Source of the DNA: a virus
Lineage: Duplodnaviria > Caudoviricetes
Virus record (IMG/VR): IMGVR_UViG_3300017747_000960
Span: 1 to 42,493 of that record
Length of the DNA: 42,493 bases
Strand: one strand, 5' to 3'
Under the pieces are notes generated by a model, which was not told where the DNA came from, did no database searches, and saw only the letters and a program-made list of their open reading frames with translations. Made by a program: the position numbers and the translations under genes. Shown here piece by piece: positions 4,404-39,711 of this stretch (the stretch's first letter is position 1; each line of letters begins with the position of its first letter).

Positions 4404-4865
4404 TTAGACGTAGGCTTTAAAAGAAAGTGGGTTGCTTGTGACGGTGGCGATCAACTCGTGGTCGTTCAACGTCATAAACAGCACCGGGTCTTCGTCTTGG
4501 TCACCTTCAGGGTTTTTTATTTCCCAACGATCACCGCCCCATTTGGGGACTCGGACGAAATCGCCTACCTGTGCCCACGCGCCCTCAGGCCATGCGGTCA
4601 TGGTGTCACGATTTTTGTACGCCAATGGCCCCAACGCGATGACTTTGCCAATCATGTTGTTCCATTTTTCGTTCTCTTTGGTCTCTTCGACCAGAACGAT
4701 GCGTCCTGTTTTCTTTTTAATGCGCCGCAGTTGAACGATTACTCGTCCTCCAAGCGGTGCCATTCCCGGATTCACATCTGGAAATGCCCACGCCAACTCT
4801 TGCGGGTCAGGCGTGTCGTGCGTGGCCTCGAAGGCCATGATTTTCTCTTTCTCACTCATCATCAA
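4404..4865 (-). CDS. groES: Phage co-chaperonin GroES (Cpn10)
   Basis: PLGGRVIV, KTGRIVLVEETKE mobile-loop region, GKVIALGP, VGDFV, LNDHELIA match the Cpn10 pattern. Confidence 0.85.
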   Translation of the reverse strand: MMMSEKEKIMAFEATHDTPDPQELAWAFPDVNPGMAPLGGRVIVQLRRIKKKTGRIVLVEETKENEKWNNMIGKVIALGPLAYKNRDTMTAWPEGAWAQVGDFVRVPKWGGDRWEIKNPEGDQDEDPVLFMTLNDHELIATVTSNPLSFKAYV

Positions 4866-5273: not shown

Positions 5274-7716
5274 TTGGTTCTCCTTGAGGTGGCATTAGGG
5301 GCGCGGCGGGTGCCGCAGGTGGTTGAGCAGGAGCCATCGGTTGGATAGGCTGATGCATCAATTTCGCGTTCTCAATCGCAATCTTTGTTTGATTGTCATC
5401 GAGGTGTTCTTGCATGTCTTTCTGCAAACGATCTTGGGCCAACTTGATGTCGGCTTGATCCTTGGCAGTCTTACGCTGTGTCTCGGCCATGTTGGTGTCC
5501 TTGACAACTTGTGCGTCAGGTGGCAATGCCGCAGGTGCGTTCTTGCGTTGCTGGGCCATCTGAATGATCTGCGTAATGGCCTGCTGGAACTGACCAAACA
5601 CTTGCTGGGTATCCAGCATGACGTGCGCGCCAATGGTGGTGTATACCTTGTCGATGGTGGCCGTGAGTGCTGGATCGTCGTAGTCATCCACTGGCTTGCC
5701 AACAGAGTCCTGCACGTAACCGTTTGAACGATTGAGGTACCACAACGTCATGTGTTGCTTCAAGTGCTCGATGAGGTTGTTCAGGTAGTTTGGGTCTGCA
5801 AATGGTGACTGGCCCAAGAATGGATTCAAAGCAAATTGCAGGTGATCCTGAATGTGTGCGATGTGATCTTGTTGCAAGTACGCATAGGCTGGTTGGCCAA
5901 TAAGCAATGCGGCGTTCTCGTCAGCCGATGTACGCTGTTCTGGGGCTGGTACGTCCTTCATTAACTCGTTGATGTTTGGCACCTTCATTTGCTTGAGCAT
6001 GCGGCTTAGGACGGCGCTGATGTTAAACTGCTCAGGATGCTTCTCGGCCAGCGCCAGCACGGCTTGGTTCTGTGCCATGCGCTGAGTCTCGGAGAAGATG
6101 TGAGGATCAGACACGGGCACCACGTCGGTGTTCTTGTCAAAGTCTTCGCGGGTGATTTCCAGATCGGCAACAACGTCGCCCTTCTTCATCTCATCAAAGT
6201 GCCAGCGGTTCAAGCGGCACAGAATCTTCAGCACACGGGCTTGCGAGTCGTGCATGCGTGCGTGGATCGATGAGAACACCGCCGCACCTTGCTCAATCAA
6301 AGCCTGTGTCGTGCCTACGGGCGCGTTGCTGGTAACGTCTGCAATCTTTTCTTCGCTTGATGTGACCACGCCTTTGGCGGCCGTATCCAGCCATCCCAAC
6401 AACTCAAACAGCACGGGGCTGGGTGGGTTGAACGGCATAGGCATGGCAATCTGGCGAATGTCTTGCACGCCGGGCGCGCCTTCAATCTCAATGATCTGGG
6501 TGACATCGACCTGCTGAGACTGGCCACTGATCTTCGCGCCCTTCAACTTCAGCATGGTGGCCGAGTTGTTGATGTGCGCAGTGTCCAGCAAGGCACGCAA
6601 AGCGCCCGTCAAGGCCGCGCTGAGGCCTCCGATGAGGTGAGGTAGCCCAATAGCGTATGCGCCGCGCCATGGGATGAATTTGAACTCAACAACCCAGTCC
6701 AGTTTGGTGCGGGTTTTGTCAACTTCTTCCCAGTTGCGATACAGGCCCACCACTTGGTTGTCGAGTTCATCGACCATCAAGATGTAGGGTGCGTACTCGC
6801 CTTTGGTTTTCTTATCGTCTTCCAACTCCAAGTAGCAGTAGATGTGATAGACCTTACGCAGGCCATCCTTATTGTCTTCAAACTGCTTGCCTTCAATTTT
6901 GTTGTTGGCTTGCTCGACTTTGTTTTGATCTAAAGTGCCAGAGGCTTTGACGTAGTTCACGTCGCGGTACATGCCAGTGCGGATGCGGCGCTCAAACTCG
7001 TACTGCGTGATCTCGTGAACTTCAGCGGCGCGCTGGGCTGTGTAGAAGTTGGTTGCCGCAAACGGTAGGATCACCCGGTCGATAGGCAAGAACTCCACGC
7101 ATGGGCGCTTTTTCTGCTCGTCAAACCAGAGTTTGAAGTACTGTGAGCCACCCAATGGCAACTGGGTAAGCAATTGCTCTTGCTCGTCCTTGAACTCTTC
7201 AATCTGGTCAGTGATCTGCCAGTTCAGGTAATCACGTTTGCGCTCTGACTTTGCCGACTTGAGGTCGTCCATCTTGCCAAGAATCTTCGTCTTGACAGGG
7301 CCATCAGGCGGGAACATCTCCTTAATGGCACGGCTGGCAAAGTCCACGCAACCCTCAGCCATGGCAGGGTGAACCACCTTAGATGCGCCCATAAAGGTAG
7401 CGCCACCGGGGGCATCATTGCCCATGCCAGTGCGTCGAATGCCTTCTTCATATTGCTTATCGCGCAGTGACCGCGCTTCTTTGTCCGTCTCAAGTAAATC
7501 AAGGTATCTGAATGCCAGCGTGGTTAGTTCGCTGGGGTCAATAGTGTCTGCAAGGTTGTCGTAGAACTCAGGATTGAATTCCGGGCCGTCTTCAATCGTG
7601 ACAATGGCCGAGCCGTCGTCCTGCTCTTCCATCTCCATCTCAGGCAGATCGACAAGCGCACTGCCGTCTTCTTGCTCTTGAATACCGATTTCGTCTGGAT
7701 TTTGTTCTGACATCAT
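5260..7716 (-). CDS. Portal protein
   Basis: 818 aa; P22-like portal pattern (VHPAM.E, FIPWRGAYAIGLPHL, APVGTT.ALIEQG) with coiled-coil/Pro-rich tail; between terminase and scaffold. Confidence 0.88.
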   Translation of the reverse strand: MMSEQNPDEIGIQEQEDGSALVDLPEMEMEEQDDGSAIVTIEDGPEFNPEFYDNLADTIDPSELTTLAFRYLDLLETDKEARSLRDKQYEEGIRRTGMGNDAPGGATFMGASKVVHPAMAEGCVDFASRAIKEMFPPDGPVKTKILGKMDDLKSAKSERKRDYLNWQITDQIEEFKDEQEQLLTQLPLGGSQYFKLWFDEQKKRPCVEFLPIDRVILPFAATNFYTAQRAAEVHEITQYEFERRIRTGMYRDVNYVKASGTLDQNKVEQANNKIEGKQFEDNKDGLRKVYHIYCYLELEDDKKTKGEYAPYILMVDELDNQVVGLYRNWEEVDKTRTKLDWVVEFKFIPWRGAYAIGLPHLIGGLSAALTGALRALLDTAHINNSATMLKLKGAKISGQSQQVDVTQIIEIEGAPGVQDIRQIAMPMPFNPPSPVLFELLGWLDTAAKGVVTSSEEKIADVTSNAPVGTTQALIEQGAAVFSSIHARMHDSQARVLKILCRLNRWHFDEMKKGDVVADLEITREDFDKNTDVVPVSDPHIFSETQRMAQNQAVLALAEKHPEQFNISAVLSRMLKQMKVPNINELMKDVPAPEQRTSADENAALLIGQPAYAYLQQDHIAHIQDHLQFALNPFLGQSPFADPNYLNNLIEHLKQHMTLWYLNRSNGYVQDSVGKPVDDYDDPALTATIDKVYTTIGAHVMLDTQQVFGQFQQAITQIIQMAQQRKNAPAALPPDAQVVKDTNMAETQRKTAKDQADIKLAQDRLQKDMQEHLDDNQTKIAIENAKLMHQPIQPMAPAQPPAAPAAPLMPPQGEPNGNV

Positions 7717-10292
7717 TTAGCCTTTTTGTTCATTGCCATCTCATACCGCATTGTCCCAGCATTCTTGTGAACAACAACAGCCTTCTTCTGAGCGGCGGGT
7801 TTGTGCTCGTCTTCACCGTGACGCATGGCCATGTGGCGCTGGGCCACAACGTTCTGCTCAGGGAATGCGTGGAAGTCGTCGTGAGCAAAGCCACGGTGAC
7901 GGCCATCAACTGATCCACCCTCAGCATAGAACTTGATTGCCTGCGGTGCAACGTACTCTTTGCCTTTTGCCTTGGCTTGATCTTCTGGCTTGTCAATCTC
8001 GTACTCACCATTGTTTTTCATGGCGTGCTCAATGTGCTTGTCGCTCACGTTGTGAGTGAATGATGTCTGGTGACCAATGTTGCTGGTTGACTCAGTGGGC
8101 GTGGTCATCAAGATGTGGCCAGCTTCTTTGCCGTTCTTGGTCTTGAAGCGATTCTTTGGCAAGAACTCAGTGTCCTTGAACCGTGAGTCGGTTGGGATCA
8201 TGTGTGGCGTGCCGTCTTTGTTCTGGCCAACCTGCACCAGTCGTGGGTGCAGGATGTGCTGGCGCTGGTAGTCGTAGCGCAGGCCTTCGTGGGTTGTGTG
8301 GCCGTAGTGGGCCTTGTCCTCTGAAGTCTTGCGTCCAGAGCCGCTGTAGTGGCCTTCTGGGCCTTCTGCGCGCTCTTCATGGGTCAACTCATTTTCAGGG
8401 CGTCCTGTTGTCCAGTATTTGGCGTGAGTGATGTGCTGTTCCATCTTCTTGGCCATGGGTGAGCCACGCTTCACGTCAGTCACCATGTAAGAGCCCTTGG
8501 GCGGTGTCTTGTTGCCCTGCTCATTAGTGAAGTCGCCCTTGTTATCAGCGGCCAAAATGGTGTTGCGCACACGTGCTTTATCGCGCCCAACGTTCTCGCT
8601 GATCTCTTGGCCCTTCTTGACCTTGGGGCCCACGTTGGAGTGGGTGACGTAGTAACCGTTCTCAGGGTCATGCAACTCATTGGTCTTACCGTATGAGTTG
8701 GCGATGATTGGTGGCTTGTCATCCATCTTGCGCTGTTCGTTCAAATGACGGATGGCGTGACGTGATGACACGTCAGTTTCGTCCACCACATTGGGACGGA
8801 ACAGCAGGCGCTGGTTGCTCTTGTCTGCAAGGCGTGCGGCGTTGCGCAGTGAGCCAGTGTGAGCCAGTATCCAGTCGTTGGTCATCTTGGGGTCGTGCTT
8901 GGCCTGCTCATGTGCGGCGCGGCGTGTGGCGGCACCAGCATATTGCGACTCAGCATTGGGCGCGAAGCATGTGCCCTTCTTGGTGTCAACGATGCCCTCA
9001 GCGTCTTTACCACCACCACATCCCTCGGTTTGGCCGGGGCAGGTGTTGATCACTTGGTACTTGGTGTCTTTGCCTTTGCCCGATGTGTACAGGGCGTGGC
9101 CAGCAACACCTTTAGATGCAAAGCCAATGTGTGTGCGGCCTTCTTCGTCGTGCTCGTGGCGCACGGTGTCCAGCTTCTCTGACTCGTCCAATGTGTTGGC
9201 GTTCTTGCCAATGTGCTTGGCTTCACGCAGACGATTGAGTGCGGCCTCTTCGGCGGCAGTCTGCTCTTCCAATGGCTTGGCAAAGTGCTCTTTCAACGTG
9301 TCGCGGTGTTGCTGGGCAATCTTGTTCAGCGTCAGCGGATCACGGTGCTCGTCACCATAAACCTTGGCGCGTGCCTCGTTCATCTCATGCAGGCCTATCG
9401 CGCCCACTTTGGCGTTGCCTTCCAGCGTATGACGGGGCACCACGATGCCTTTGACGCCACCAGAACCTTCAGCCTTGATGGTGACGCGCTTGTCTTGCGC
9501 TGAGGGCTTTTTGGCCGCCATCTCAGCTTTCATGTCGTCCACGGACGGTTGGCCACCCTTGGCCAGCTTTTGGGCACCAAGAGCGTTCATGGCTTGTCCT
9601 TGGGGCGTCATTGACAGCATGTTACCCATGGGCGGTGTTAGGCCTTGTGGGGCACCCATAGGAGCGCCGGGTGGGCCTCCAGCAGGGCCGCCGGGCGGTG
9701 GGGCACCGGGCGGTTGACCGGGCGCGCCTTGCGGGGGCTGAGGAGGTGTGGGCATCAATTGTTGGCCACCCTGCATCTGGCTCATGTCAACACCACCGAT
9801 GGGCATGCCACGTGTAGTTGCCACGCCGCCGGGGCTGGGGAAACCAATGTCGCTGGTCTCAGGTGGGAAGAAGTGTTTGGGCGACATGTTTGGTGCCTCA
9901 TTCACTCCAACATTTTTTAGGTCAACGCTACTGCTCTTTTGAGCCAGCGCCAGCTTCATTTTGGCCAATGATGGTTGCACATAGCCTCCCTTTGCTTTTT
10001 TGATTGCGTATGAGTCTTTGCCAGTCTTCTCAGCGACGTGGTAGCCATCATGGCCAGCCTGCTTGATGGCGTCTTGAATACGTGGGTCTTCGATGTGCTT
10101 CCAGTTGCCTGTGGCCAGCGTGGTTGCCAAGTGCTTGGCCACATCGGGAATCTTGTTGAAGTCTTTGTGCTTGGCGGCAATCTCTGACACCGTCTCGACG
10201 TGGTCAGCATTCTCGTAGTCAAACGGGTTGCTAATCTCTTTGCCTTTGGAGTAATTCACATGCTCTTCGGCCTTCCACTCGTCAGGTGCCAC
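7713..10292 (-). CDS. Polyvalent protein, C-terminal part (Pro/Gly-rich linker, Gp88-like Cys-containing domain); in frame with 10335..11882
   Basis: 859 aa ORF; frame continues upstream to a TAG at 10335-10337; AxGG motifs between domains. Confidence 0.75.
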   Translation of the reverse strand: MAPDEWKAEEHVNYSKGKEISNPFDYENADHVETVSEIAAKHKDFNKIPDVAKHLATTLATGNWKHIEDPRIQDAIKQAGHDGYHVAEKTGKDSYAIKKAKGGYVQPSLAKMKLALAQKSSSVDLKNVGVNEAPNMSPKHFFPPETSDIGFPSPGGVATTRGMPIGGVDMSQMQGGQQLMPTPPQPPQGAPGQPPGAPPPGGPAGGPPGAPMGAPQGLTPPMGNMLSMTPQGQAMNALGAQKLAKGGQPSVDDMKAEMAAKKPSAQDKRVTIKAEGSGGVKGIVVPRHTLEGNAKVGAIGLHEMNEARAKVYGDEHRDPLTLNKIAQQHRDTLKEHFAKPLEEQTAAEEAALNRLREAKHIGKNANTLDESEKLDTVRHEHDEEGRTHIGFASKGVAGHALYTSGKGKDTKYQVINTCPGQTEGCGGGKDAEGIVDTKKGTCFAPNAESQYAGAATRRAAHEQAKHDPKMTNDWILAHTGSLRNAARLADKSNQRLLFRPNVVDETDVSSRHAIRHLNEQRKMDDKPPIIANSYGKTNELHDPENGYYVTHSNVGPKVKKGQEISENVGRDKARVRNTILAADNKGDFTNEQGNKTPPKGSYMVTDVKRGSPMAKKMEQHITHAKYWTTGRPENELTHEERAEGPEGHYSGSGRKTSEDKAHYGHTTHEGLRYDYQRQHILHPRLVQVGQNKDGTPHMIPTDSRFKDTEFLPKNRFKTKNGKEAGHILMTTPTESTSNIGHQTSFTHNVSDKHIEHAMKNNGEYEIDKPEDQAKAKGKEYVAPQAIKFYAEGGSVDGRHRGFAHDDFHAFPEQNVVAQRHMAMRHGEDEHKPAAQKKAVVVHKNAGTMRYEMAMNKKAK

Positions 10293-10334
10293 GGTGCCGC
10301 CTTTGGCAAAGCCGAAGTCCTTCTTCTTGAAGGG

Positions 10335-11882
10335 CTAGGCGCGGGGCAGGTCTGACGTGCCGGCGGCTTTGTTGATGCGGGACACCTCAGCGTCTGACAG
10401 CACCTTGTTGACCTTCATCGATCCACCGATCAACCAACTGCCGGTCATGTTGGGATTGGTCTTGTATCGGTAATGGCCGCCCTTGGGTATCTGGTCGGTG
10501 ATGTGTGCCTTGACGGGCACCACCTTGCCTTGTGCATTGGTGCCGCGCTTGGTGGCCTCAGCTTGCCAGTCCACGTCATCAGGCATCTCCACCTCAGCCC
10601 ATGCATGGTTGGCAGGACGGCGGTCGGGCGCGGTCAGTTTGGGGTCAGACTTCTCACCGATGTGGGTGGCGATGGGCAGGTCACCAGCGTGCCAGCCGGG
10701 ACGGTAGGCAAGGTCGCCGATCTTGGACTTGACCTTGTTGCCACGCATTTCGCCCTCTTTGGCGTCCACCCACTTGTTCATCTCCACCGGTGTGTTGGCG
10801 TCCACAAACAATGGGAACAGCTTGCCGGGATGATCTGGGTGGACACGGAATAGTTTGTAAGCCTTGACGGTGCTCTTTGGTTCTTTCACTGTGCCCCCCT
10901 TGGCCTTGGTAATGTCGTTCTCATTGGTGTCGTATGTGCCACGGTTGCCAGTAGCCGACTTGATCTTGTTCTGGTGAAAGGGCCTGAATGCGTCAATCGT
11001 ATGCTCGGCGTCGTATCCCTCGCCAATTTTGCTTGGGTCGCCTTTGTAGTACGGCATGCCAGCATCAAACACGTCTTTGTGAATCATGCCGTCATAGCCT
11101 TGCTTTTTGAGTTGCTTGACGACCTCATGCGAGTCTGCCAATGCATATGCATCCACTGATGCCTCTGGCAATAACTCGTCCAGAATTCGACTGACATCTT
11201 TTTTGCCGCCTGCTTCACTTACTTCGTCTGCAAGTTGCGCAAAACTTCTGACTCTGAAGTGGCCGCGCTTGTCGGTAGCATCGATGCTGTGCTTGGCACC
11301 GCCCTTCATGACGTGGTGATCAAGCGTGCTTAAAACGTCTGACAGGTCTTCATATCCAAGTTTGCTTTTGTGACGTGGGACAGTCAAATCATGATCCATC
11401 TGGTTGATAAATTCTTCCAGCGTTACATGCTCACCCAGCTTCCTGACATCGAACGGCTTCTTCATTTGCACATGCACTGGCACGCTGGTCGATCCGGGCC
11501 CGTGCTTGATGTCCCATCCAAGTTGCTGGGAGTACACGTTGGCGACTTCAGGATCGTCCGTGAACGATGGCGTTGACCGGTCTTGCGTGGTGACAAACTT
11601 GTCTACTTTGGGCACCTTGCGCTGGCCCCTGTACAGCCTTTGCTTGATCTCGCTGTCTTGCAGGAACTTAGCCAAGTTGGCGTCGCGTTGTTCACGGGGT
11701 AATACGTCACCACCCTCAGCCTTGCCTTGCTGGCGCTGGGTCAGCCATTCACTGAATGACGGCATGTCACGGGTGTACTTGCTGGCCATCTCTTTGTCGT
11801 ACTGCTTGCTCAACTGCGAACGCATCTCAGCCAACTGCCGTTGCTGTTCAAGTTGCTTGCGGTATTGCTCAGGAATGGGCAT
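10335..11882 (-). CDS. Polyvalent protein, N-terminal part (ART-PolyVal-like ADP-ribosyltransferase domain plus a second domain)
   Basis: LYRG...SFTDDPEVANVY...PVHVQMKKPF...QGYDGMI...IKSATGNRGTYD resembles the ADP-ribosyltransferase domains of phage polyvalent proteins; GAGG RBS. Confidence 0.7.
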   Translation of the reverse strand: MPIPEQYRKQLEQQRQLAEMRSQLSKQYDKEMASKYTRDMPSFSEWLTQRQQGKAEGGDVLPREQRDANLAKFLQDSEIKQRLYRGQRKVPKVDKFVTTQDRSTPSFTDDPEVANVYSQQLGWDIKHGPGSTSVPVHVQMKKPFDVRKLGEHVTLEEFINQMDHDLTVPRHKSKLGYEDLSDVLSTLDHHVMKGGAKHSIDATDKRGHFRVRSFAQLADEVSEAGGKKDVSRILDELLPEASVDAYALADSHEVVKQLKKQGYDGMIHKDVFDAGMPYYKGDPSKIGEGYDAEHTIDAFRPFHQNKIKSATGNRGTYDTNENDITKAKGGTVKEPKSTVKAYKLFRVHPDHPGKLFPLFVDANTPVEMNKWVDAKEGEMRGNKVKSKIGDLAYRPGWHAGDLPIATHIGEKSDPKLTAPDRRPANHAWAEVEMPDDVDWQAEATKRGTNAQGKVVPVKAHITDQIPKGGHYRYKTNPNMTGSWLIGGSMKVNKVLSDAEVSRINKAAGTSDLPRA

Positions 11883-21456: not shown

Positions 21457-21687
21457 TTACTCTGCAACAATAATTACTGTTGCTGTCTCTCGGTCAATTT
21501 GTATTTGGCCATCGGCCACCATGTTCCAATCGTCCGAGCAACACTCTTTGTCACTGCGGCATGGAATGGTGAACACAACGTGCTTTGCAAGGTACTCTTT
21601 CTTGCCCACAAACACACGCCATGCATGATCGACTGTGCCCCTTCCTTCTTGGCCACGGGACTTGTTAAAACGCACACGGATTTTCAT
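21457..21687 (-). CDS. Hypothetical protein
   Basis: 76 aa; ATGA overlap with the oxygenase gene. Confidence 0.7.
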   Translation of the reverse strand: MKIRVRFNKSRGQEGRGTVDHAWRVFVGKKEYLAKHVVFTIPCRSDKECCSDDWNMVADGQIQIDRETATVIIVAE

Positions 21688-22319
21688 AAAATCTCCACAG
21701 ACTTTTCTTCTTTGGCCTCTTCGTTGACGGCCACGCTCAGGTTCATGTGAACGAATCTCATCGACTCATTGCCCATGTTTTTGGTGAACGAGTGTGGCAC
21801 CCATGCGTTAATCAAAATCAATGCGCCGGGCTGGGGTGTGAACACGATCTGGTGTGAACCCAGAGTGATGTTGCTTGCGTCCTTTTCAGGCAGGTTGATG
21901 ATCACTTTGCCGGGCCTTGGATCATGCACAACCAGCTTGCAGGCCTTGTCGGGTACATCAATAAAAAAGAACGCGCTGATCTGGCATCCAGCCCCGTGAA
22001 CATGGGTCTCCATGGATGACAAGTGGTTGTGCTCTTGCGTCCACATCTCGGTGAAGTACGTCACCAACTGATCCATGTTGTAGCCCTGCGATGCAAGGAT
22101 GTTCCATGCGGTCTGCGAAACGTACTGCGAGAAGTCTTGCAACTCTGGCTCATGCGAATAACTGCCGGTCATGAGGTTCACGTAGTCAGGATTCTTTTTG
22201 CGCTCACGCGACTTTTCTTCGTAGCGCATAGACACTGTGCGAACCATGTCAATAAATTCAGGCTTATGCACCACATACACGGGCGTGGCAAAGTAGTGCA
22301 TCTCTTCAAGTTGATCCAT
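21684..22319 (-). CDS. 2OG-Fe(II) oxygenase (TIGR02466-like)
   Basis: HVH...ISAFFFI...HDPRP...PQPG.LIL...W.PH...R...N double-stranded beta-helix pattern. Confidence 0.85.
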   Translation of the reverse strand: MDQLEEMHYFATPVYVVHKPEFIDMVRTVSMRYEEKSRERKKNPDYVNLMTGSYSHEPELQDFSQYVSQTAWNILASQGYNMDQLVTYFTEMWTQEHNHLSSMETHVHGAGCQISAFFFIDVPDKACKLVVHDPRPGKVIINLPEKDASNITLGSHQIVFTPQPGALILINAWVPHSFTKNMGNESMRFVHMNLSVAVNEEAKEEKSVEIL

Positions 22320-28533: not shown

Positions 28534-28572
28534 AAAAAAAGAGCCCCCTCAGGGGGGTATCCGAGGGGGCCC
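28534..28572 (-). terminator. Intrinsic terminator ending the structural/ejection operon
   Basis: Minus strand GGGCCCCCTCGG-loop-CTGAGGGGGCTC-TTTTTTT at the convergence point. Confidence 0.75.
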
Positions 28573-31472: not shown

Positions 31473-33224
31473 TTAACCTTTCTTGGATGGCATAGCGCCA
31501 CGTGAAGAAGTAGAGGCGCAACCTTTGAAGCCACGTGCTTTGGACTTGATGAGGCCGCCGTCAGCCGCGCACTCAAAGCAACAGCAACAGTAACATTCAC
31601 AGCAACAGCATTCACACGAGCAACAGTCACCGCAATCACCGCAATCACCGCAATCACCGCAATCACCGCAATCAGAACCGCCTCCACCACCAATACCTTT
31701 GAAGATGTCTCCGAGGCCTGATTTGATGCCGGGGAAACATTTGACAAGTGCTTTGCCTGCGGTGCCCAATGCGGCCGCGCCAGACAGCGGAGACATGCAC
31801 AAAGTAGTCTTCGTGCCAGTTGGGATGCTGTAGCCCTGAAGCAGGGTTCCAAGCGATTGCAACTTGGTGAGCGGATAGTTCTGCTCGTTCTGTGCAATGG
31901 TCTGTTGCTGGCCACCAAGGGTAGACAGCGCGTTGATACAGGCCAAGTTCATGTTGGCACCAGTCTGTGCCAAGTTTCCCATGTTGACGCCTGCTTGGTT
32001 CAACAAGTTGCCTTGGTTTGCCGCCGCCTGTGCGGCAGTTTGTGCCGCAGTGAGGTTGGCTTGATTCTGTGCAGTCTGGGCCTGCGATGCAGTTGAACCC
32101 AAGCCTGCCGCAATCTGGTTTGCGCCTTGTTGCAAATTGCCAAGGTTTGATCCTGCGTTGATCCTGTTTTGTGCTTCCTGATTTGTTAGTGAACCAGCAG
32201 TCGATCCCAACTGTGCAAGTGTGTTGGCCTTCTGCTGAGTCAACGTGCCTTGGATGTTGCCGGCATTGATCAGGTTCTGCATTTGCTGGCCAGTCAGTTG
32301 ACCAGATGTCTGACCTAATTGGCCAAGCAAAGAGGCCTGCTGTTGCGCCAATGTGCCTGCGGTGTTACCTGCATTGGCCACCAGTGCGTTTTGCTTGCCA
32401 GCGGCGCACAAAGCCTGTCCATAGCCCTGAGACATCATCTGGGCAATCTGGTTGTTTAGGTCTTGTTGTGCTTGGGCAGTAATCTGACCTTGAACCTGAG
32501 CACCACGCTGTGATCCAAACTGGCCAGAGCCCACTGCGGCGGCGGCGGCCATAGGTGACAAATTCTGACGGATGTTTCTCTGTGCAATGTCCGACATCGA
32601 CTGCACCGCAGTCTTGAGGTACGGGTTCATGTACGAAGCGGCCAAGTCAGCAGGGCTGGTGCCAGTGGCTTGTTGGAGGTAAGGCTGTGCCGCACTCAAT
32701 CCACCGCTTGTGGCGGCTTCCTGAAGATACGGTTGGGCCGCGCCAGTCATGTTCAGCTTGGTAGCTTGGTTGACGTACTGGCCAGACACGCATGCACCGC
32801 ATGTGCCTGCCGCACTTCCCAAGTATTGGTTGGCAGAAGCCAAACCAGACATGTTTGCACCCCTGCAAATCAAAGGCTGTCCAGCCTCGTAGCCAGTCGT
32901 ACACATGGCAGTCTTGGCGTAAGGCTCCATGGCGCTCAGAGGGCTAGAACCGGTGCCGGCTTTAAGGTAAGGAGATGCCGCGCCCGTAATGTCTTGCCCA
33001 GCCGCTTGGCCCACCAAATTCTTGCCGGCAGTGATGCCTGCTTGCTGGGCTCCAAAGTTTTGACAGGCCTGTGCAAATGCCTTCTCTTGCAAAGGCTGGG
33101 CTCCTGCAAATTGCGCCTGATCAGCGGCCGTTTGACCCTTGCTTGCAAGGTTACTCAGGTAGTCGGTGTAATAACCCGGCGCATTCGTTTGTTTATTTTG
33201 CGAGGATTGCAGTAAGTTTGCCAT
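31473..33224 (-). CDS. Putative ejection/DNA-pilot protein, Gln/Ala/Gly repeats, Cys-rich C-terminus
   Basis: 583 aa; GQFGSQRG pilot-like motif; 16- and 18-residue repeats; about 28 Cys. Confidence 0.7.
   Translation of the reverse strand: MANLLQSSQNKQTNAPGYYTDYLSNLASKGQTAADQAQFAGAQPLQEKAFAQACQNFGAQQAGITAGKNLVGQAAGQDITGAASPYLKAGTGSSPLSAMEPYAKTAMCTTGYEAGQPLICRGANMSGLASANQYLGSAAGTCGACVSGQYVNQATKLNMTGAAQPYLQEAATSGGLSAAQPYLQQATGTSPADLAASYMNPYLKTAVQSMSDIAQRNIRQNLSPMAAAAAVGSGQFGSQRGAQVQGQITAQAQQDLNNQIAQMMSQGYGQALCAAGKQNALVANAGNTAGTLAQQQASLLGQLGQTSGQLTGQQMQNLINAGNIQGTLTQQKANTLAQLGSTAGSLTNQEAQNRINAGSNLGNLQQGANQIAAGLGSTASQAQTAQNQANLTAAQTAAQAAANQGNLLNQAGVNMGNLAQTGANMNLACINALSTLGGQQQTIAQNEQNYPLTKLQSLGTLLQGYSIPTGTKTTLCMSPLSGAAALGTAGKALVKCFPGIKSGLGDIFKGIGGGGGSDCGDCGDCGDCGDCGDCCSCECCCCECYCCCCFECAADGGLIKSKARGFKGCASTSSRGAMPSKKG
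31627..31671. repeat. Coding tandem repeat, 5 x TCACCGCAA (Cys-Gly-Asp)
   Basis: Five perfect 9-bp units. Confidence 0.95.
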
Positions 33225-33226
33225 TT

Positions 33227-35377
33227 TTAACCTTTCGTCTGCTTGATGTAGTCAAGGGGAGACTTCGCCTTAGGTGGTATTTTACTTGTGGGTGCCGATC
33301 TTTTGTGTGCGCGCAACTTCTCACGCAGACCATCAAGAATCTTTGCACCCGCCTTGTTGTCGCCACCACCGAGGGCTGAAACAAAACCTGCTGGGAAAAC
33401 GTACTCGCCGTCTGCAATCTTGGCTGGTACGGGTTTGCCTTTTGCTTTTTCATCGTGACGAATCTGACTGCGGAAGCCTTCAAGGACTTCACGGCCAGCC
33501 TTGCTGGAGCCGTCACCCAAAGCCGCCACCACGTCAGCGTCCATCACGTAGTCGCCATCGTGAAGCATTGCTGGGATGTCGTCTGATTGACCTGTGCCAC
33601 CGCCGCAAGCGTAGTAGCCAGTCATGCCCGTCACAAACTCTGGGTTGTGGTTGTCAGGCATGGCGTCTTGATACTTCTTAGGCAGGCCACCAGCGGCCAA
33701 GCCACCCATATTGCCATGCTGGGAGATACGCTGTTGCAAGTGAGTCAACTGCTTGAGAGTCAAAGGCTGGCGTTTGCTTGATGCGGAGTTGACCAACATG
33801 TCCGAGCCGCAATTTACAAACTTGGGCATGTACTTGGCGTCTTGGTTGTAGCAATAGGTCATTGAGCCTTCAACGTTGCCGCCCTCCGCAAAACTGCCAC
33901 CGTGCGCAAGTCCACCCGTAGGTTCGCCAAACGGGTTGAGTTTGATCTGAGGCACACCTCCAAAACGGTCTTGCATTTCTTTAGCCAAGCAACCATCCAT
34001 GCGGCCATAAATGTCCTGCAACTTAGTTTGACTGGGCGTTTCAGGATTAGTTTTGTCAAAAACAATTTGATTGCGCAACAACGAGTCGCGTGTGTCAAGC
34101 CATGGGATAGCACCGCAACCAAGAGTACCAAGCGTTCCCACAGTTTGCACTGTTTTTGTTTTTGGAATCTTGATCTTTGGAATCTTGATTTTTGGCGGCT
34201 TGACTACGGGCGGTTTGACCACGGGTGGCTCATCTTCGCAATCACATACGCAAGTTACTTCACATGCATCTCTCTTAGCTGTAACCGTAACTGTCGGGAG
34301 GGAGGGAACTGATGGGACGTTGGTGCAACCAACTTCACACGCATCTTTTGTTCCAGTAACCGTAACTGTTGGAAGTGTTGGAGTAGTACATGTATCACGT
34401 GTGCCAGTCACATTGACTGTTGGCAAACAAGTTACTTCACAAGCATCCCTTTTTGCGGTCACTGTGACTGGTGGAAGTTCTGTAATAGGCGTGTTTACGG
34501 TATCTGTGGTTGTTGGCAAGCCACCAGTAACAGTTGTATTTGATGTGCAAGTCAAGTCAGTACAAGTTGGTCTTGTGCCAGTGACGGTGACGGTATCAAG
34601 AGCACCAGTGCCCGTTGTGGCTCCGGTGCCTGTTGTATCGGCCGATCCGATGGTACCAAGGCTACGGGTCAAACCAGTAGAAGTGCCAGAAACATCTGTG
34701 CAAAAGTCACGGTTACCAGTGACAGTGACCGTGTTGTCAGTGTTTTCGCCAATCTGAGTTGTGGCGCCGCCCGGCAATGCGCCAAGGTTTGTTGTCGATG
34801 CACAGCCTTGTGCGCAATCATCGCCTGCGGCAACAGCAGTAACTGGAAGGCCACCCGATGATGTACAAATATTACTGAGACTTCTGGTAAGGTCTTTAGT
34901 ACCAGTGTTGATCAAGTTGTTGGCCATGGCACCAACAGCACCACACACAATGTTCTGACCTTTAAGGCCAGATGCCACAGCACCCTTGGCACCTGCGGTC
35001 ACCACGTTACTGGCGGCGCAACTTAAATCAAATGCGCATGTAATTTGATTGCCAGCAAAAGTTCCAATCTCAGCACCAATCATGTTTAGACCAGTGTTGA
35101 GTAAAGCCTTCTCAAGTGGGACACCAGTAGCAACGCTGTAGCCAAAGTTGAACGCAGGCAGTAGGCTGGGCGCGTAGATGGCAACACCAATCTTGGCCAT
35201 CGTGCCAAGAGGGTCGTCCATGGCCGCTTGAATTGTGTTGCCTACTGCTTTAACGACAGGCTCAACAACCTCTTCAACTACGGTCTCAACGATGTCGCCA
35301 ATGCCCTCGACAACGGCACCAACGGCGTCGCCAACTGCTTCAAAAACGTCGCCAATTGCACTGACTACTGCTGACAT
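33227..35377 (-). CDS. Putative ejection protein with TonB-box-like repeats and duplicated tape-measure-like C-terminal domain
   Basis: 716 aa; amphipathic N-terminus, Thr/Cys-rich repeats, PPVVK/PKIKI segment, two (SDD)IPAxLxDG(D/E)YV domains; AGGAG RBS. Confidence 0.7.
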   Translation of the reverse strand: MSAVVSAIGDVFEAVGDAVGAVVEGIGDIVETVVEEVVEPVVKAVGNTIQAAMDDPLGTMAKIGVAIYAPSLLPAFNFGYSVATGVPLEKALLNTGLNMIGAEIGTFAGNQITCAFDLSCAASNVVTAGAKGAVASGLKGQNIVCGAVGAMANNLINTGTKDLTRSLSNICTSSGGLPVTAVAAGDDCAQGCASTTNLGALPGGATTQIGENTDNTVTVTGNRDFCTDVSGTSTGLTRSLGTIGSADTTGTGATTGTGALDTVTVTGTRPTCTDLTCTSNTTVTGGLPTTTDTVNTPITELPPVTVTAKRDACEVTCLPTVNVTGTRDTCTTPTLPTVTVTGTKDACEVGCTNVPSVPSLPTVTVTAKRDACEVTCVCDCEDEPPVVKPPVVKPPKIKIPKIKIPKTKTVQTVGTLGTLGCGAIPWLDTRDSLLRNQIVFDKTNPETPSQTKLQDIYGRMDGCLAKEMQDRFGGVPQIKLNPFGEPTGGLAHGGSFAEGGNVEGSMTYCYNQDAKYMPKFVNCGSDMLVNSASSKRQPLTLKQLTHLQQRISQHGNMGGLAAGGLPKKYQDAMPDNHNPEFVTGMTGYYACGGGTGQSDDIPAMLHDGDYVMDADVVAALGDGSSKAGREVLEGFRSQIRHDEKAKGKPVPAKIADGEYVFPAGFVSALGGGDNKAGAKILDGLREKLRAHKRSAPTSKIPPKAKSPLDYIKQTKG
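34271..34738 (-). repeat. Six TonB-box-like peptide repeats
   Basis: DNTVTVTGNR, LDTVTVTGTR, LPPVTVTAKR, LPTVNVTGTR, LPTVTVTGTK, LPTVTVTAKR. Confidence 0.8.
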
Positions 35378-35378
35378 A

Positions 35379-35810
35379 TTACTCTCCTAAATTCAAGCCA
35401 ATGCGAGTTTTCCCGTCTTTTGCTCGAAAGACTTGATAGCCCATTCCGGGCATCGGTGGGTTCATCGCAATAATTTTGAACAATCGCTCAAGAGAGGGAT
35501 CGGTAAATTCTGTGACCAATACTTTGATTCCAAAAACTTTTTTAGCCCACACGGTAAACAGTTTGCTGTTTTCCACAAAGTTGGGGCCTGTGTCTGCATT
35601 AAATGCTTTGAAAAAACCTTGGCCGTCTTTGCCTTTGTGAAGTTCAAACAAAGTGTTGCCAAATTGTTTGACTTCAGTATTGGGCTGACTTAGTTCGTCA
35701 AGGATGGCAGGCATCATCACCTGAGGTGAGTGAGGCTGTTTATTGTTCTCAAGAAAAATGCCGATGATCTGGCCTGTATCTAGTTTCTGCTTTTTTGAAT
35801 CTATTTGCAT
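35379..35810 (-). CDS. Hypothetical protein, possibly a degenerate GNAT fold
   Basis: 143 aa alpha/beta pattern at the position before the ejection genes where podophages often carry a GNAT-like gene; fold not confirmed. Confidence 0.5.
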   Translation of the reverse strand: MQIDSKKQKLDTGQIIGIFLENNKQPHSPQVMMPAILDELSQPNTEVKQFGNTLFELHKGKDGQGFFKAFNADTGPNFVENSKLFTVWAKKVFGIKVLVTEFTDPSLERLFKIIAMNPPMPGMGYQVFRAKDGKTRIGLNLGE

Positions 35811-35811
35811 T

Positions 35812-36927
35812 TCATAACTCCGTTGTCATTACTGCGGCTGAATAAACGTTACCCATACCAGCCGCTAATGACAAAATGGCCCCTTTCGGAGCCTCAATGT
35901 CGTGCGACAAGAATACGTCGTCTTCTTGCGTTCTGTTTGGAATGCTCGGCACAAACCCGTTGGTCATATTGTCGATCAACATGCATGTTTCAAGCAAGCC
36001 GCTTACGCCCATCGTGTGACCAATTACCTGCTTGTACGAGGTGGCCACAAAGTCCGTGAAGGTCGATTCAATGGCCGCTCTTTCAGCCCGGTTGTTGGAT
36101 TTGGTGCCCGTGCCATGGGTTTTGATTACCGAAATGCATGCCGGGGTCAATTCAGCCATCTTCAGCGCGCCCTTTGAGGCCTTCACAAAGCCTTCGCCGT
36201 CATCAGTCTGGCCGATGGCATTGGCGCAGTTCTCTGAGGCCGTATAGGCCCCTAAAAGACGGCCCTTGGGGGTGATTCCACGGCGCTTGACCGTGGCTTC
36301 GTCCTCAAACACCGCCAAACAGGCCCCCTGACCCACGTGGAAGCCGCCGTTTACGCTGTCGAAGGCCGAGGGTAGGACACCCTCTTTTTCGTCCTTCCAA
36401 GCCAGCGATGCCTGTGCTTCACCGAAAAAGTTCAAAGTCAGGTTGCTTACTTGATCTTCCACGGCCAACACAATCACCCGGTTGAAACCGTAGAAGCGCA
36501 TTAGGGTTTGTACGTCCATGAGCACTTTCATGCTGGAAGCGCAGGCGGTGGAGTCGGTCACTATGTGGTCTACCGCACCAAAAATCTGAGCGGTACGGCC
36601 AGCGTATACCTGAGTCAGCGTCAGCGGCAGGAACTTGTATTCGTAGGTCAGGCTGTTGGGCTCTTGTTTGACGGCGTTGATGCCAGCAAAGTGGCCGTTG
36701 CCACCAGCCAGAATGAATGCTGTCTTGGCCTCAGTGTCTTCACGCAAAGTCTTGGCCAACTTCTGATCAATTACCTTGTCGGCAACCCGGTGCGGAGGGT
36801 AGAACAAGCCAGTCTTGACCTTGTCGTAGGATTCTGGAAACCAGTTCACCACCTGAGGGAAGCGGATGTCTTCAAACAGTTTGGTCTGGGTGCATGACGC
36901 AAGTCGGTAGTCGCTGAGGTAAATCAT
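35812..36927 (-). CDS. Beta-ketoacyl-ACP synthase (FabB/FabF-like ketosynthase)
   Basis: STACASS (Cys129), PSAFD...GFHVGQGA, KTHGTGT (His271), SYKQVIGH (Lys299, His304). Confidence 0.92.
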   Translation of the reverse strand: MIYLSDYRLASCTQTKLFEDIRFPQVVNWFPESYDKVKTGLFYPPHRVADKVIDQKLAKTLREDTEAKTAFILAGGNGHFAGINAVKQEPNSLTYEYKFLPLTLTQVYAGRTAQIFGAVDHIVTDSTACASSMKVLMDVQTLMRFYGFNRVIVLAVEDQVSNLTLNFFGEAQASLAWKDEKEGVLPSAFDSVNGGFHVGQGACLAVFEDEATVKRRGITPKGRLLGAYTASENCANAIGQTDDGEGFVKASKGALKMAELTPACISVIKTHGTGTKSNNRAERAAIESTFTDFVATSYKQVIGHTMGVSGLLETCMLIDNMTNGFVPSIPNRTQEDDVFLSHDIEAPKGAILSLAAGMGNVYSAAVMTTEL

Positions 36928-37205
36928 TTGATCAACTCCTGCGCCTCTTCAACCGACGCAGGGTCTCGTTTTTTGTGCTCTTCTAAGAAGTCAAACAATT
37001 GCTGTGGAGTCTCAGGGTGAAACTCTTTCACCAAGTCGTCTTCAATGTCGTAAATGATGGCCATGTACATGACGATCATTAGGCCATCAAGAGAGTCAAG
37101 TTCAGTCTCTTTAAATGGCGTCTCCATGCTCTCAAGCGGAGCAAGGTCTCGAAACGAAGGGCGCGCCTCCCGCGCCACCATGTTCAGTAAATCTAAAAAG
37201 TTCAT
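36924..37205 (-). CDS. Acyl carrier protein-like
   Basis: 93 aa, acidic, helical; LDSLD phosphopantetheine motif (Ser38); ATGA overlaps with the KS gene and the upstream gene. Confidence 0.82.
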   Translation of the reverse strand: MNFLDLLNMVAREARPSFRDLAPLESMETPFKETELDSLDGLMIVMYMAIIYDIEDDLVKEFHPETPQQLFDFLEEHKKRDPASVEEAQELIK

Positions 37206-37438
37206 TGTGCCCCCACATTTAAAATGCCGACAGCTTGCTCGGCCCACTCTTCCCAGTTATGAAATGCCCTCGAATCTGGAAGCCCTGATTGCTCAAGACC
37301 ACCAAACGTCGAGAACCCATCAACCCATTCCCGCCAATGCTCTTGAGGTACAACAGCAAGTTGCCGGGAAGCGAATAACTCAACCATCAGTTTGCAGTAC
37401 TGATCCCAAGTCATTCCGCGAGGGTCATAGGCAGTCAT
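37202..37438 (-). CDS. Small Trp-rich tail-associated protein
   Basis: 78 aa; DPRGMTW...WREW...WEEWAE; coupled to the nozzle gene. Confidence 0.7.
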   Translation of the reverse strand: MTAYDPRGMTWDQYCKLMVELFASRQLAVVPQEHWREWVDGFSTFGGLEQSGLPDSRAFHNWEEWAEQAVGILNVGAQ

Positions 37439-39711
37439 TATGGATTACCTGTGCCACGTACATCGCCAGTGTCTATGCTCAAAAGCACCCGGCCCATGAA
37501 ATAGTCTCCGTTTTGTGTATTACTCCTAAAGCGCATGCGCATCTCACGATACTGCTCACGCATATCAACCTTCAGCGTGTCTGGGGCAAACGTATACGGT
37601 TCTGATTCTTGCGTGGTGTCTTCGGCGTAGCCTTTACCCAGCACAACAACTTCCATGTTGCCGTTCTGCACGAAGTCAGGTTCAATGCGCTCACAGCGAG
37701 TCCAGACGTTGTCGCCGGGCTGTTCTACGGTACCCACAAGGCCCATGCGTGTGCCAAGAATGTTGGTCTCAAAGAACGAGTCAATTGCGTTCACCTGATT
37801 GGTGTACACCTCATTCGTTCCGGTCTCGTGTTGCCACAGTGTGTACTTGCCGGCCGTGTTTTGAACGTTGCCTGCCCAGATAGGACGACGGAACACTTCG
37901 GTGAACACACCAGCAGAGCGGCGCGCACCCAAGGCTTGGCCAGCGTCGTACCACACCTTCTCACGCACGTTGTAGATGATGGCGTCGTTGCACTCTTCTG
38001 AATCACCAGAAGGAAAGAACCACCAGATTTCACCCCAACGAGGCACCTTGCTCACCCAGACCTTTTGGCGCTGGACGTAGTTCAGGTTGTCAAAAAAGTA
38101 GTTGTTGTTTTGCTTGTTCTCGACCTCTTGCACAACACCGTTGTACATGAGGAAACGATCAGAACCCACCCAGTAAAAGATGCCGTCGTACTCAATTACG
38201 CACTGGCTTGAAAGAATAGAAGACTGCTGTGTGATCAAGTCATAACGCCAATACAGCGTCTGGTTTCCTACGGTGGTGGGTGAATAGGTGACCCGCACTA
38301 CAGAATCCAACGTCCAGAACAGGCCGGCAGGTGATGTTGTACCGCCCCGAACTGGCAGGCCCTTCACCACTTTGGTGGAAGAGATGTTGTTGCGGTTCGA
38401 GTCGGCCGATGTCCAGTTGTTGAAGTCACCAGCCGCACAGTTTCCAATGAAACCGTTGTTGCCATAGGTAAAAAGGTAAGGGAACAACATGACGATGCCG
38501 CCAGACACAGAGATGTTGTTGTCAAAAGTCAGAGTCGAGTAAGCGCCAAACGTAAGCCCGGTTGTTGACCCTGCCGTGGTGGTGATTGCCGCACCGCCAG
38601 ATGTGGCAGACAAGGTAAATGTGCTTGTTGTGTTGGTGGCAATAACGTAATACGTTCCAGCGGCAATACCTGTGGCGGTTCCAGTCAATGTTCCTGTTAC
38701 GACAACTGCTTGGCCAACTGCAATGTTGGTTGTGGCCGTGCAAGAAAATTGTCCAGCAGTGCCAGTTACCGCAACGCCAGCCAGCAAAGCACTTGGTGTT
38801 GATGCTGATGCATTTGCGCTCAATATGGCAGTCCACACTCCAGAAACTTCTTGTGCGCTTACCACCGTGGTGCCTGAGGGGATGCCAGTGCCTGTTACGG
38901 ACACGCCAGCACCAATACCCACGTTGGTGTTTGGAAAGGTTATTGTGGAAGAACCTGTGGTCGTTGTTGCTGTGTCCGTGAACACACCGACGGGTTGCAA
39001 TGTAGTCCCAGTGAACGGGCCAAACATGGGGCGCGTGTTCACCGAAGATGAGATGTCGGCCAAGTTCTGGCCGGGGTGTGCAATCAGGTTGTTCTGACCG
39101 TTACCGTAAGCGTCGTAACCAATGTCAAATTGCCACAGCGTGTTTGCGCTTGGAGCATAGGTTGTGAGGGCATCAATGTACCCAGTAAAGCCTGATCCTG
39201 TGCCGCCAATGCTTGCCGCAGAGATTGTGACCGCCGCATTGTGAACATAATTCACACCGCCACTGGTGACGACCACGCTAAACACCAAGTTGCTGGATAC
39301 CGTCACAGTAACTGTGCATCCAGTTCCAGCGGCTGTGGTAATAGACACGCCAGTGTATGTGCCGTTGGTGTATGCCGAGCCTTGGGTGGTGATACCAATT
39401 GATGCTACGGAGCCAACTGGCTCCACAGGTGTTGGGCCAAAACCCACACCATTGTCGTTGTCAGTCGTCCATTGCTCGATGCCGTTGTTGTATCCAGAGA
39501 TCACGTAGTTGAGCCCATTCTCTGCGCTCATGATCATCCCGCGACTGATCCCTGTGGCGTTCAAAAACGCTCCGTTGTATCCAGCAATTTTCCGAGGGCG
39601 TCCGTATTGGAAGCGAACCCACTTCCCGTCCACATAACTCACCGACGAAAAGATTGTCCCGTCCCGCTGTATGCCGGGGCCTACTTGAAGCGTGACGACC
39701 TTTGCTGTCAT
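37438..39711 (-). CDS. Tail nozzle / stabilisation protein (P22 gp10 or T7 gp12-like) with inserted beta domains
   Basis: 757 aa; DGKWVRF, FYWVG..FLMYNG and EIWWFFPS beta-propeller pattern; Thr/Gly-rich inserts. Confidence 0.75.
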   Translation of the reverse strand: MTAKVVTLQVGPGIQRDGTIFSSVSYVDGKWVRFQYGRPRKIAGYNGAFLNATGISRGMIMSAENGLNYVISGYNNGIEQWTTDNDNGVGFGPTPVEPVGSVASIGITTQGSAYTNGTYTGVSITTAAGTGCTVTVTVSSNLVFSVVVTSGGVNYVHNAAVTISAASIGGTGSGFTGYIDALTTYAPSANTLWQFDIGYDAYGNGQNNLIAHPGQNLADISSSVNTRPMFGPFTGTTLQPVGVFTDTATTTTGSSTITFPNTNVGIGAGVSVTGTGIPSGTTVVSAQEVSGVWTAILSANASASTPSALLAGVAVTGTAGQFSCTATTNIAVGQAVVVTGTLTGTATGIAAGTYYVIATNTTSTFTLSATSGGAAITTTAGSTTGLTFGAYSTLTFDNNISVSGGIVMLFPYLFTYGNNGFIGNCAAGDFNNWTSADSNRNNISSTKVVKGLPVRGGTTSPAGLFWTLDSVVRVTYSPTTVGNQTLYWRYDLITQQSSILSSQCVIEYDGIFYWVGSDRFLMYNGVVQEVENKQNNNYFFDNLNYVQRQKVWVSKVPRWGEIWWFFPSGDSEECNDAIIYNVREKVWYDAGQALGARRSAGVFTEVFRRPIWAGNVQNTAGKYTLWQHETGTNEVYTNQVNAIDSFFETNILGTRMGLVGTVEQPGDNVWTRCERIEPDFVQNGNMEVVVLGKGYAEDTTQESEPYTFAPDTLKVDMREQYREMRMRFRSNTQNGDYFMGRVLLSIDTGDVRGTGNP

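Follow-up and report, generated by a model that had tools for sequence, protein, structure and literature searches.

The DNA considered here is IMG/VR virus record IMGVR_UViG_3300017747_000960, whose 42,493 bases are treated as a whole and called the window. By its gene content it belongs to a short-tailed phage, with genes called for a terminase, a portal, a capsid protein, an SU10-type adaptor, a nozzle and a lytic transglycosylase. Among sequencing runs the best match is a freshwater metagenome, and the phage is an uncultured freshwater one. The record is probably incomplete, because complete relatives span 55-68 kb. The genes from the holin to the transglycosylase form a single run on the minus strand, each abutting the next, which ends at a strong hairpin. 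Within this run, between the tail nozzle and the first putative ejection protein (EJ1), three genes encode an acyl carrier protein (ACP), a ketosynthase (KS) and a 143-residue protein with the predicted fold of a GNAT acyltransferase (Table 1). On the sequence comparisons and structure models described here, this cassette is rather likely to be a unit for the ACP-dependent acylation of the N terminus of EJ1.

Table 1. Features of the tail and ejection operon in the window
Feature	Position	Strand	Basis or remark
Tail nozzle (context)	37438..39711	-	phrog_3287, E 1.8e-28; a relative's copy is annotated 'phage stabilization protein'
78-residue gene in the interval between nozzle and cassette	37202..37438	-	conserved; found with and without the cassette
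ACP, 93 residues, phosphopantetheine site Ser38 (DSL)	36924..37205	-	homologue conservation; profile and fold matches
KS, 371 residues, Cys129/His271/Lys299/His304	35812..36927	-	PF02801, E 9.5e-16; PF00109, E 5.8e-6
143-residue protein, predicted GNAT acyltransferase fold ('long' type)	35379..35810	-	slot of internal virion protein A (T7 gp13 / P22 gp14)
Putative first ejection protein EJ1, 716 residues, proposed acyl acceptor	33227..35377	-	position as T7 gp14 / P22 gp7 (inferred from synteny)
Putative second ejection protein EJ2, Cys-rich tail	31473..33224	-	phrog_4287 DNA ejection protein, E 4.5e-5
Terminator-like hairpin closing the tail/ejection operon	28541..28572	-	12 pairs, then a T-run; match to consensus only

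The genes around the cassette are tightly packed. The nozzle and the 78-residue gene overlap by 1 bp, the 78-residue gene and ACP by 4 bp, and ACP and KS by 4 bp, while 1-bp gaps separate KS from the 143-residue gene and the latter from EJ1. A preliminary description of this DNA had given the same coordinates and junctions, together with the DSL serine of the ACP and Cys129, His271 and His304 of the KS, and all of these are as it stated. It was also correct that no FabD, FabG, FabZ, FabI, thioesterase or phosphopantetheinyl transferase (PPTase) family is found in the window by a Pfam scan of 64 open reading frames (31 + 33, out of 281 of at least 50 residues, the rest being mostly shadow frames). 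PPTase, FabD and FabG families are likewise absent from all five complete KS-bearing relatives, in which the positive controls were detected. The ACP, KS and GNAT genes are all under purifying selection, with dN/dS values of 0.05-0.19, similar to those of the adaptor, in comparisons with five relatives (three for the GNAT gene). A promoter scan gave 3 sites, fewer than the 8.9 obtained in shuffled sequences.

The ACP has no Pfam match as a single sequence, while its profile matches solved ACPs in the PDB with a best E of 1.4e-4. Asp37 and Ser38 are invariant among 62 homologues. The model (pLDDT 84.6) is a helical bundle in which the conserved Ser lies at the start of helix II (residues 38-51), as expected of the class, and its best fold match is ACP 1vku (Z 8.6, root-mean-square deviation (rmsd) 2.5, 75 residues aligned). 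In the KS, Cys129, His271, Lys299 and His304 are invariant among 63 aligned sequences and align with FabF structures, so the Cys-His-His triad and conserved Lys of FabF and FabB are all present. The pair resembles AcpP and FabF/FabB of the type II fatty-acid synthase (FAS) in having an ACP fold with DSL and a Cys-His-His-Lys site. Unlike FabF/FabB, the KS lies far under the equivalog cut-offs (108.3 bits against 493.75 for TIGR03150, 45.7 against 630 for PRK07967), and it is not accompanied by PPTase, FabD or FabG in the complete relatives. The top of the KS profile search is instead a separate set of proteins of 340-390 residues, 28-45% identical, which keep the triad and have a common G-M-G-N C-terminal loop at the place of FabF's Phe-gate motif. 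By these sequence features the KS belongs to a family of its own, mainly of phages, that is distinct from FabF/FabB. With PPTase absent from all five complete relatives, phosphopantetheinylation of the ACP would fall to the host enzyme.

This KS family is represented in about 630 IMG/VR stretches. Among the 185,579 prokaryote genomes of GTDB it has 14 loci, all on contigs of metagenome-assembled genomes (MAGs), several of which are phage, and INPHARED contains one full-length relative, MW202545, with the same gene order. Of 105 distinct KS-profile matches, 101 are immediately preceded by an ACP gene; of the other four, two are uninformative and two are ordinary FabF. KS is followed by a long GNAT gene in 76 of the 80 viral loci kept, three loci being in a replication region and one cut off. 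These context frequencies are biased, because loci were ranked by likeness to the query sequences.

The preliminary description had called the 143-residue protein GNAT-like as a guess, which the fold matches of its AlphaFold2 model (pLDDT 93.9) bear out. The best GNAT match is RimI (Z 11.3, rmsd 2.7, 121 residues aligned), where matches within 1 Z of each other count as tied. As many as 137 chains reach a Z of at least 8, and the 50 matches listed are all of acyl- or acetyltransferase type, the best including RimI and Ard1; the modelled protein has the fold of the GNAT superfamily. It has no Pfam match at E 0.1 and no PHROG or NCBIfam match. Its sequence matches neither the HlyC family PF02794, which does match bacterial neighbours of related KS genes, nor PF11039 or PF11090 of the podoviral internal virion protein A (IVP-A), with which it shares Atlas similarity only. 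The nearest named Atlas cluster is DUF2824 (0.93, 150 features), and the viral fold matches of the model include DUF2824, internal virion protein A. The position of the gene is also that of IVP-A, a small GNAT-family gene between the nozzle and the first internal virion protein (T7 gp13; P22 gp14, which is DUF2824/PF11039; cobavirus pc40) (PMC4819975, PMC6775973). Neither the substrate nor the donor of IVP-A is stated in the available portions of PMC4819975 and PMC6775973. The cassette GNAT thus shares the slot, the predicted fold and the Atlas neighbours of IVP-A, but it has no Pfam or PHROG match and is accompanied by an ACP and a KS of its own.

When relatives are fetched by the adaptor gene, the slot ahead of EJ1 contains ACP, KS and a long GNAT, or a short homologue of 120-140 residues alone, or nothing. 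Four such relatives, 89-100% complete, lack KS throughout their records. One 5.6-kb record (L213) has a long GNAT without an adjacent KS. The coenzyme A (CoA) diphosphate loop Q/R-x-x-G-x-G/A, the P-loop of CoA-dependent GNATs, is absent from residues 64-86 in all 62 long GNATs and occurs elsewhere in the chain in four of them, while a carrier protein is encoded together with the enzyme, as in the GdvG, FeeM and SbzI systems. A predicted complex of GNAT and ACP scored 0.02 and is counted neither way. Since the best fold matches include the N-terminal acetyltransferases RimI and Ard1, the long GNAT might be a simple N-acetylase of EJ1, or a non-catalytic chaperone, with ACP and KS hitch-hiking or serving assembly in some other way. 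The T7 IVP-A is needed for morphogenesis and is not kept in the virion (PMC4819975), and short GNATs fill the same slot in phages that lack KS. Against this explanation, which is improbable, the long GNAT lacks the P-loop, ACP and KS are under purifying selection, and hitch-hiking fails for the phages described below in which KS and the long GNAT are far apart.

EJ1 has weak PHROG matches, in its C-terminal part only, and in the window it starts with M-S-A-V-V followed by an amphipathic helix. A start of this kind, broadly M-[G/S/A]-[A/G]-V and then the helix, is characteristic of the phages with the cassette. The pattern M[GSACP][AGSV][AVIL] is found in 73 of 74 EJ1 starts beside KS and in 11 of 11 that follow a long GNAT without an adjacent KS, as against 3 of 13 where the GNAT is short and none of 19 where there is no GNAT (3 of 32 in all); this contrast is descriptive, because the pattern was fixed after the sequences had been viewed. 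The counts are of distinct starts, 173 rows having been reduced to 119 by removing duplicates in the first 40 residues, and leave out L035 and L040, where the gene after the slot is not identifiable as EJ1. The helix that follows is amphipathic both in the KS group and in the group with a long GNAT alone, its median hydrophobic moment being 0.44 with KS, 0.40 with a long GNAT and no adjacent KS, 0.27 with a short GNAT and 0.19 with none. In the one exception among KS loci and in four EJ1 proteins beside short GNATs (L017, L060, L075, L085 and L136 together), a leader of 26-37 residues ending in a Gly run precedes the same helix. In P22 gp7 a host protease removes 20 N-terminal residues (PMC4992974), and by analogy the leader suggests that an N-terminal Gly is exposed by proteolysis.

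Which group of EJ1 would receive the acyl chain can be narrowed by the same comparison. The preliminary description had laid most weight on cysteines, with lysine and the N terminus as further candidates. KS enzymes hold acyl chains as Cys thioesters, and EJ1 and EJ2 of the window contain 23 and 28 Cys, so that a relay of acyl chains from the KS onto ejection-protein cysteines would be conceivable. Once the gene neighbourhoods are surveyed, however, the Cys-richness of EJ1 and EJ2 proves to be independent of KS. Of the 57 full-length EJ1 proteins in KS loci, 42 have no Cys at all and 10 have at least 10, compared with 4 of 14 in KS-less loci (p=0.45); EJ1 of KS-less phages reaches 61, 99 and 102 Cys; and EJ2 is Cys-rich in 11 of 14 KS loci and 9 of 13 KS-less ones. 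Cysteines are therefore rejected as the target of the cassette, and S-acylation is largely refuted as its general function and very improbable. A Lys near the tip of EJ1 is also unlikely to be the general acceptor, since residues 2-30 contain none in 48 of 74 proteins. In 9 of the 74 there is no Lys, Ser, Thr or Cys in residues 3-30, which leaves the alpha-amine as the one nucleophile common to all EJ1 proteins.

The Cys-rich ejection proteins (window 31473-35377; L031, L060, L075, L008 and L034), with up to 102 Cys in 668 residues, form a distinct feature of a single lineage, independent of the cassette. In EJ2 the conserved Cys 429, 476, 546 and 569 are replaced by Asp, Gln or Asn in Cys-free relatives, and there is a poly-Cys tail in addition.

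The cassette might also be one acyl-transfer unit with an acceptor other than the EJ1 N terminus, such as an internal Lys or Ser of EJ1, a different protein of the virion, a small amine, or the lipid A or O-antigen of the host. The GNAT fold is compatible with a wide range of amine acceptors, internal Lys residues are the sites modified by HlyC and CdiC (PMC8510554), and the identity of residue 2 varies among EJ1 proteins. It is nevertheless the extreme N-terminal motif, and not the other features tested, that tracks the long GNAT both in cis and in trans, and a GNAT in the IVP-A slot is tied to ejection-protein morphogenesis (PMC4819975). An alternative acceptor is accordingly unlikely, if the least so of the competing explanations.

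The trans cases come from a second phage lineage, in which ACP and KS are inserted after an SNF2 helicase gene in 11 of 79 informative loci. A confinement of the cassette to the ejection operon is thereby rejected. Three records (G002, G004 and G065) cover both the KS after the helicase and the tail region, and each has a long GNAT and an EJ1 starting with M-[G/S]-[G/A]-V about 20 kb away. None of the 11 relatives (7 distinct, four of them at least 90% complete) that hold both sites without KS has a long GNAT or the motif; ten have no GNAT and one has a short GNAT. The KS of G002 and those of G004 and G065 fall in two different starred clades. Two further records, G001 and G047, contain KS and lack a nozzle. 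For KS, the long GNAT and the motif to occur together over such a distance is expected of a functional unit and not of a metabolic passenger. In this lineage, EJ1 proteins without a GNAT (L319-L327) start with a domain that has a common R-A-P-D-x-x-G motif and no amphipathic helix, and this domain is possibly an alternative surface anchor.

Relatives outside these phages differ in what surrounds the ACP-KS pair. A Burkholderiales MAG (L164) has a KS that is 45% identical over 370 residues, its full length, and the gene order at L164:1229-7550 is TolC-like, LuxR, HlyC (PF02794), ACP, KS, HlyC (PF02794) and RTX-repeat protein. Judged by these genes, it is an RTX system equipped with an ACP and a KS of its own; the HlyC-flanked KS gave no plasmid match. 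In two metagenome contigs of the same lineage an HlyC-like gene, with an HlyC match under the cut-off, again precedes ACP and KS. Because HlyC genes flank the bacterial ACP-KS pair, in one lineage, the KS family appears to be tied to protein acylation outside phages as well. A marine TARA contig with a KS of 45% identity keeps both the ACP-KS-GNAT order and the EJ1 motif.

In Rhodocyclaceae and Nitrosomonadaceae MAGs (L158:7657-9128 and L160:441-1843) the pair is nested in the phage clade and has bacterial-looking surroundings, and a transfer between phage and bacteria, in either direction, is possible. In Sulfurovum (L168:6806-10903 and L167) a KS of 34-35% identity with an ACP has a ferritin/desaturase-like gene on one side and metallo-beta-lactamase-fold, SDR-like and thioesterase-like genes on the other, the last two recognized by sight. 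In one more phage (L165:7645-17029) the genes after the pair encode an outer-membrane beta-barrel protein, a 151-residue protein with an Asp-rich motif and proteins that start with M-G-S and have Gly runs; the 151-residue protein has no Pfam or NCBIfam match, and no long GNAT was found in this phage.

These surroundings bear on a metabolic reading, in which ACP and KS, as a pair of auxiliary genes, would supply or adjust the fatty-acid synthesis of the host and the GNAT would be an ordinary IVP-A working on its own. The pair does move as a two-gene unit, both to the helicase site and to bacterial contigs without a GNAT, it lies among fatty-acid-type genes in Sulfurovum, its Cys-His-His-Lys site is intact, and fabF is listed by name among the lipid genes of freshwater pelagimyophages (PMC7029224). 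A metabolic role leaves unexplained, however, why the long GNAT and the motif follow KS over 20 kb (3 of 3 records with KS, 0 of 11 without), and it fits poorly with a KS far below the FabF cut-off in a family of its own, an ACP too divergent for Pfam, and a late-operon position in most loci. It is thus quite unlikely. The proposal of the preliminary description that the genes are an acyl cassette for ejection proteins rather than a metabolic gene has in its core gained comparative support, from the GNAT fold, the joint presence of KS, the long GNAT and the EJ1 motif, and the HlyC-flanked relatives. Its emphasis on cysteines is not supported.

Several observations weigh against N-terminal acylation of EJ1 by the cassette. 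Residue 2 of EJ1 varies (37 Gly, 27 Ser, 8 Ala, 1 Pro and 1 Lys among 74), the motif also occurs in three phages with short GNATs, and EJ1, whose ejection role is assigned by position only, has three times the length of T7 gp14. The P-loop also seems to be missing from the short GNATs of KS-less phages (seen, uncounted), so its loss is not specific to the cassette enzyme. The cis counts are inflated because adjacent genes move as blocks. In a quick tree of a short, 170-residue nozzle region the KS status changes 12 times, and only four independent pairs lie on starred branches, nearly all in the same direction (p=0.125); the pair test is underpowered, a count of five pairs giving p 0.06. KS absence is genome-wide only for G011, G019, G020, G036, G037, G041 and G044 (at least 90% complete) and G006 (89%); in the other KS-less records it means absence within the locus only. 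The trans comparison has three positive records, two of them close kin, and 23 of the 24 long-GNAT fragment records test nothing because they stop short of the helicase site. Finally, ACP-KS pairs occur without an adjacent GNAT or HlyC gene in MAG contigs L158, L160 and L167/L168 and in phage L165, and a long GNAT was not found in those 8 incomplete genomes by a search that had no positive control.

Dedicated acylation systems of comparable composition are known from bacteria. In rhizobia, NodF, NodE and NodA provide a dedicated ACP, KS and N-acyltransferase, the other steps being supplied by the host FAS and the acceptor being a chitin oligomer. GdvG, of goadvionin biosynthesis, reportedly acylates the N terminus of a ribosomal peptide with a chain from a dedicated fatty-acid pathway. 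Carrier-protein-dependent GNATs such as GdvG, FeeM/FeeL and SbzI/SbzG have no CoA P-loop and are paired with a dedicated carrier (PMC11685415). The cassette GNAT is like them in both respects but differs in that they make small natural products in bacteria, whereas its proposed acceptor is a virion protein and only an ACP and a KS are supplied with it. HlyC and CdiC share with the proposed system an acyl-ACP-type lipidation that aids membrane engagement, and the same ACP-KS family stands between HlyC genes in the Burkholderiales lineage; they acylate an internal Lys, however, whereas the site proposed here is an alpha-amine and the 143-residue protein has no PF02794 match. By the tests run, the cassette falls outside FabF, HlyC and PF11039, and by analogy it may work as a private acylation system of the GdvG or NodFEA type. 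An acetyltransferase-family gene in the IVP-A slot and carrier-dependent GNATs are already known. No description of an ACP-KS-GNAT unit in a phage with an ejection protein as its target was found in the literature searched, which covered few subscription papers and did not extend to supplementary tables of auxiliary metabolic genes, where such genes may be listed. The words 'acyl' and 'acetyl' are absent from the main text of two recent papers on ejection-protein structures.

A route to the acylated protein can be proposed, in which the chemistry, the acceptor and the role of EJ1 are all our inference. As in type II FAS, host PPTase would prime Ser38 of the phage ACP and host FabD would load it with malonyl. 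Cys129 of the KS would then take an acyl chain from host acyl-ACP and condense it onto the phage ACP; condensation is favoured over a pure relay because the His-His-Lys residues of the KS are retained. The phage ACP would be left with a chain separate from the host pool, either reduced by the host or in the 3-oxo form, which may be the product because the cassette has no reductase. Host methionine aminopeptidase would expose Gly, Ser or Ala at position 2 of EJ1, a virion protein of 460-2000 residues, and the GNAT would move the chain to the alpha-amine of this residue before packaging. At ejection, the lipid and the amphipathic helix together would seat EJ1 in the outer membrane. The T7 protein at the position of EJ1 exits first and reaches the outer membrane (PMC8954989). 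CdiC adds 3-hydroxydecanoate to CdiA for binding of lipopolysaccharide (PMC8510554), and by analogy a lipid anchor on EJ1 would help at the outer membrane.

Other parts of the window have features of their own. The terminase-portal interval (7713-11882) contains two large polyvalent-protein-like genes, one of 859 residues with a weak GP88 match and one of 515 residues with an ART-PolyVal ADP-ribosyltransferase domain just below the cut-off. Positions 4404-4865 and 21684-22319 encode a GroES-like co-chaperonin, which belongs to the head module, and an oxygenase of the 2OG-Fe(II) type.

If EJ1 is acylated as proposed, the cassette would constitute a lipidation pathway that a phage encodes for a protein of its own virion, of which none was found in the literature searched, and it would provide an undescribed route for phage entry into the host membrane. 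It would show how a protein that is packaged in soluble form comes to be committed to the outer membrane, and would give a function to the podoviral acetyltransferase-family IVP-A gene that is needed for morphogenesis. Three genes and a short tag would also make a tool for N-terminal acylation. Some of the 'fabF/acpP auxiliary metabolic genes' of aquatic viromes would then be virion-maturation genes. More broadly, and somewhat more tentatively than for the unit itself, hundreds of aquatic short-tailed phages may lipidate the tip of EJ1 with a custom chain made by a phage ACP and KS. The IVP-A GNATs in general, T7 gp13 and P22 gp14 included, may be N-terminal acyltransferases of pilot proteins, with the ACP-KS pair as an optional addition by which the chain is determined.

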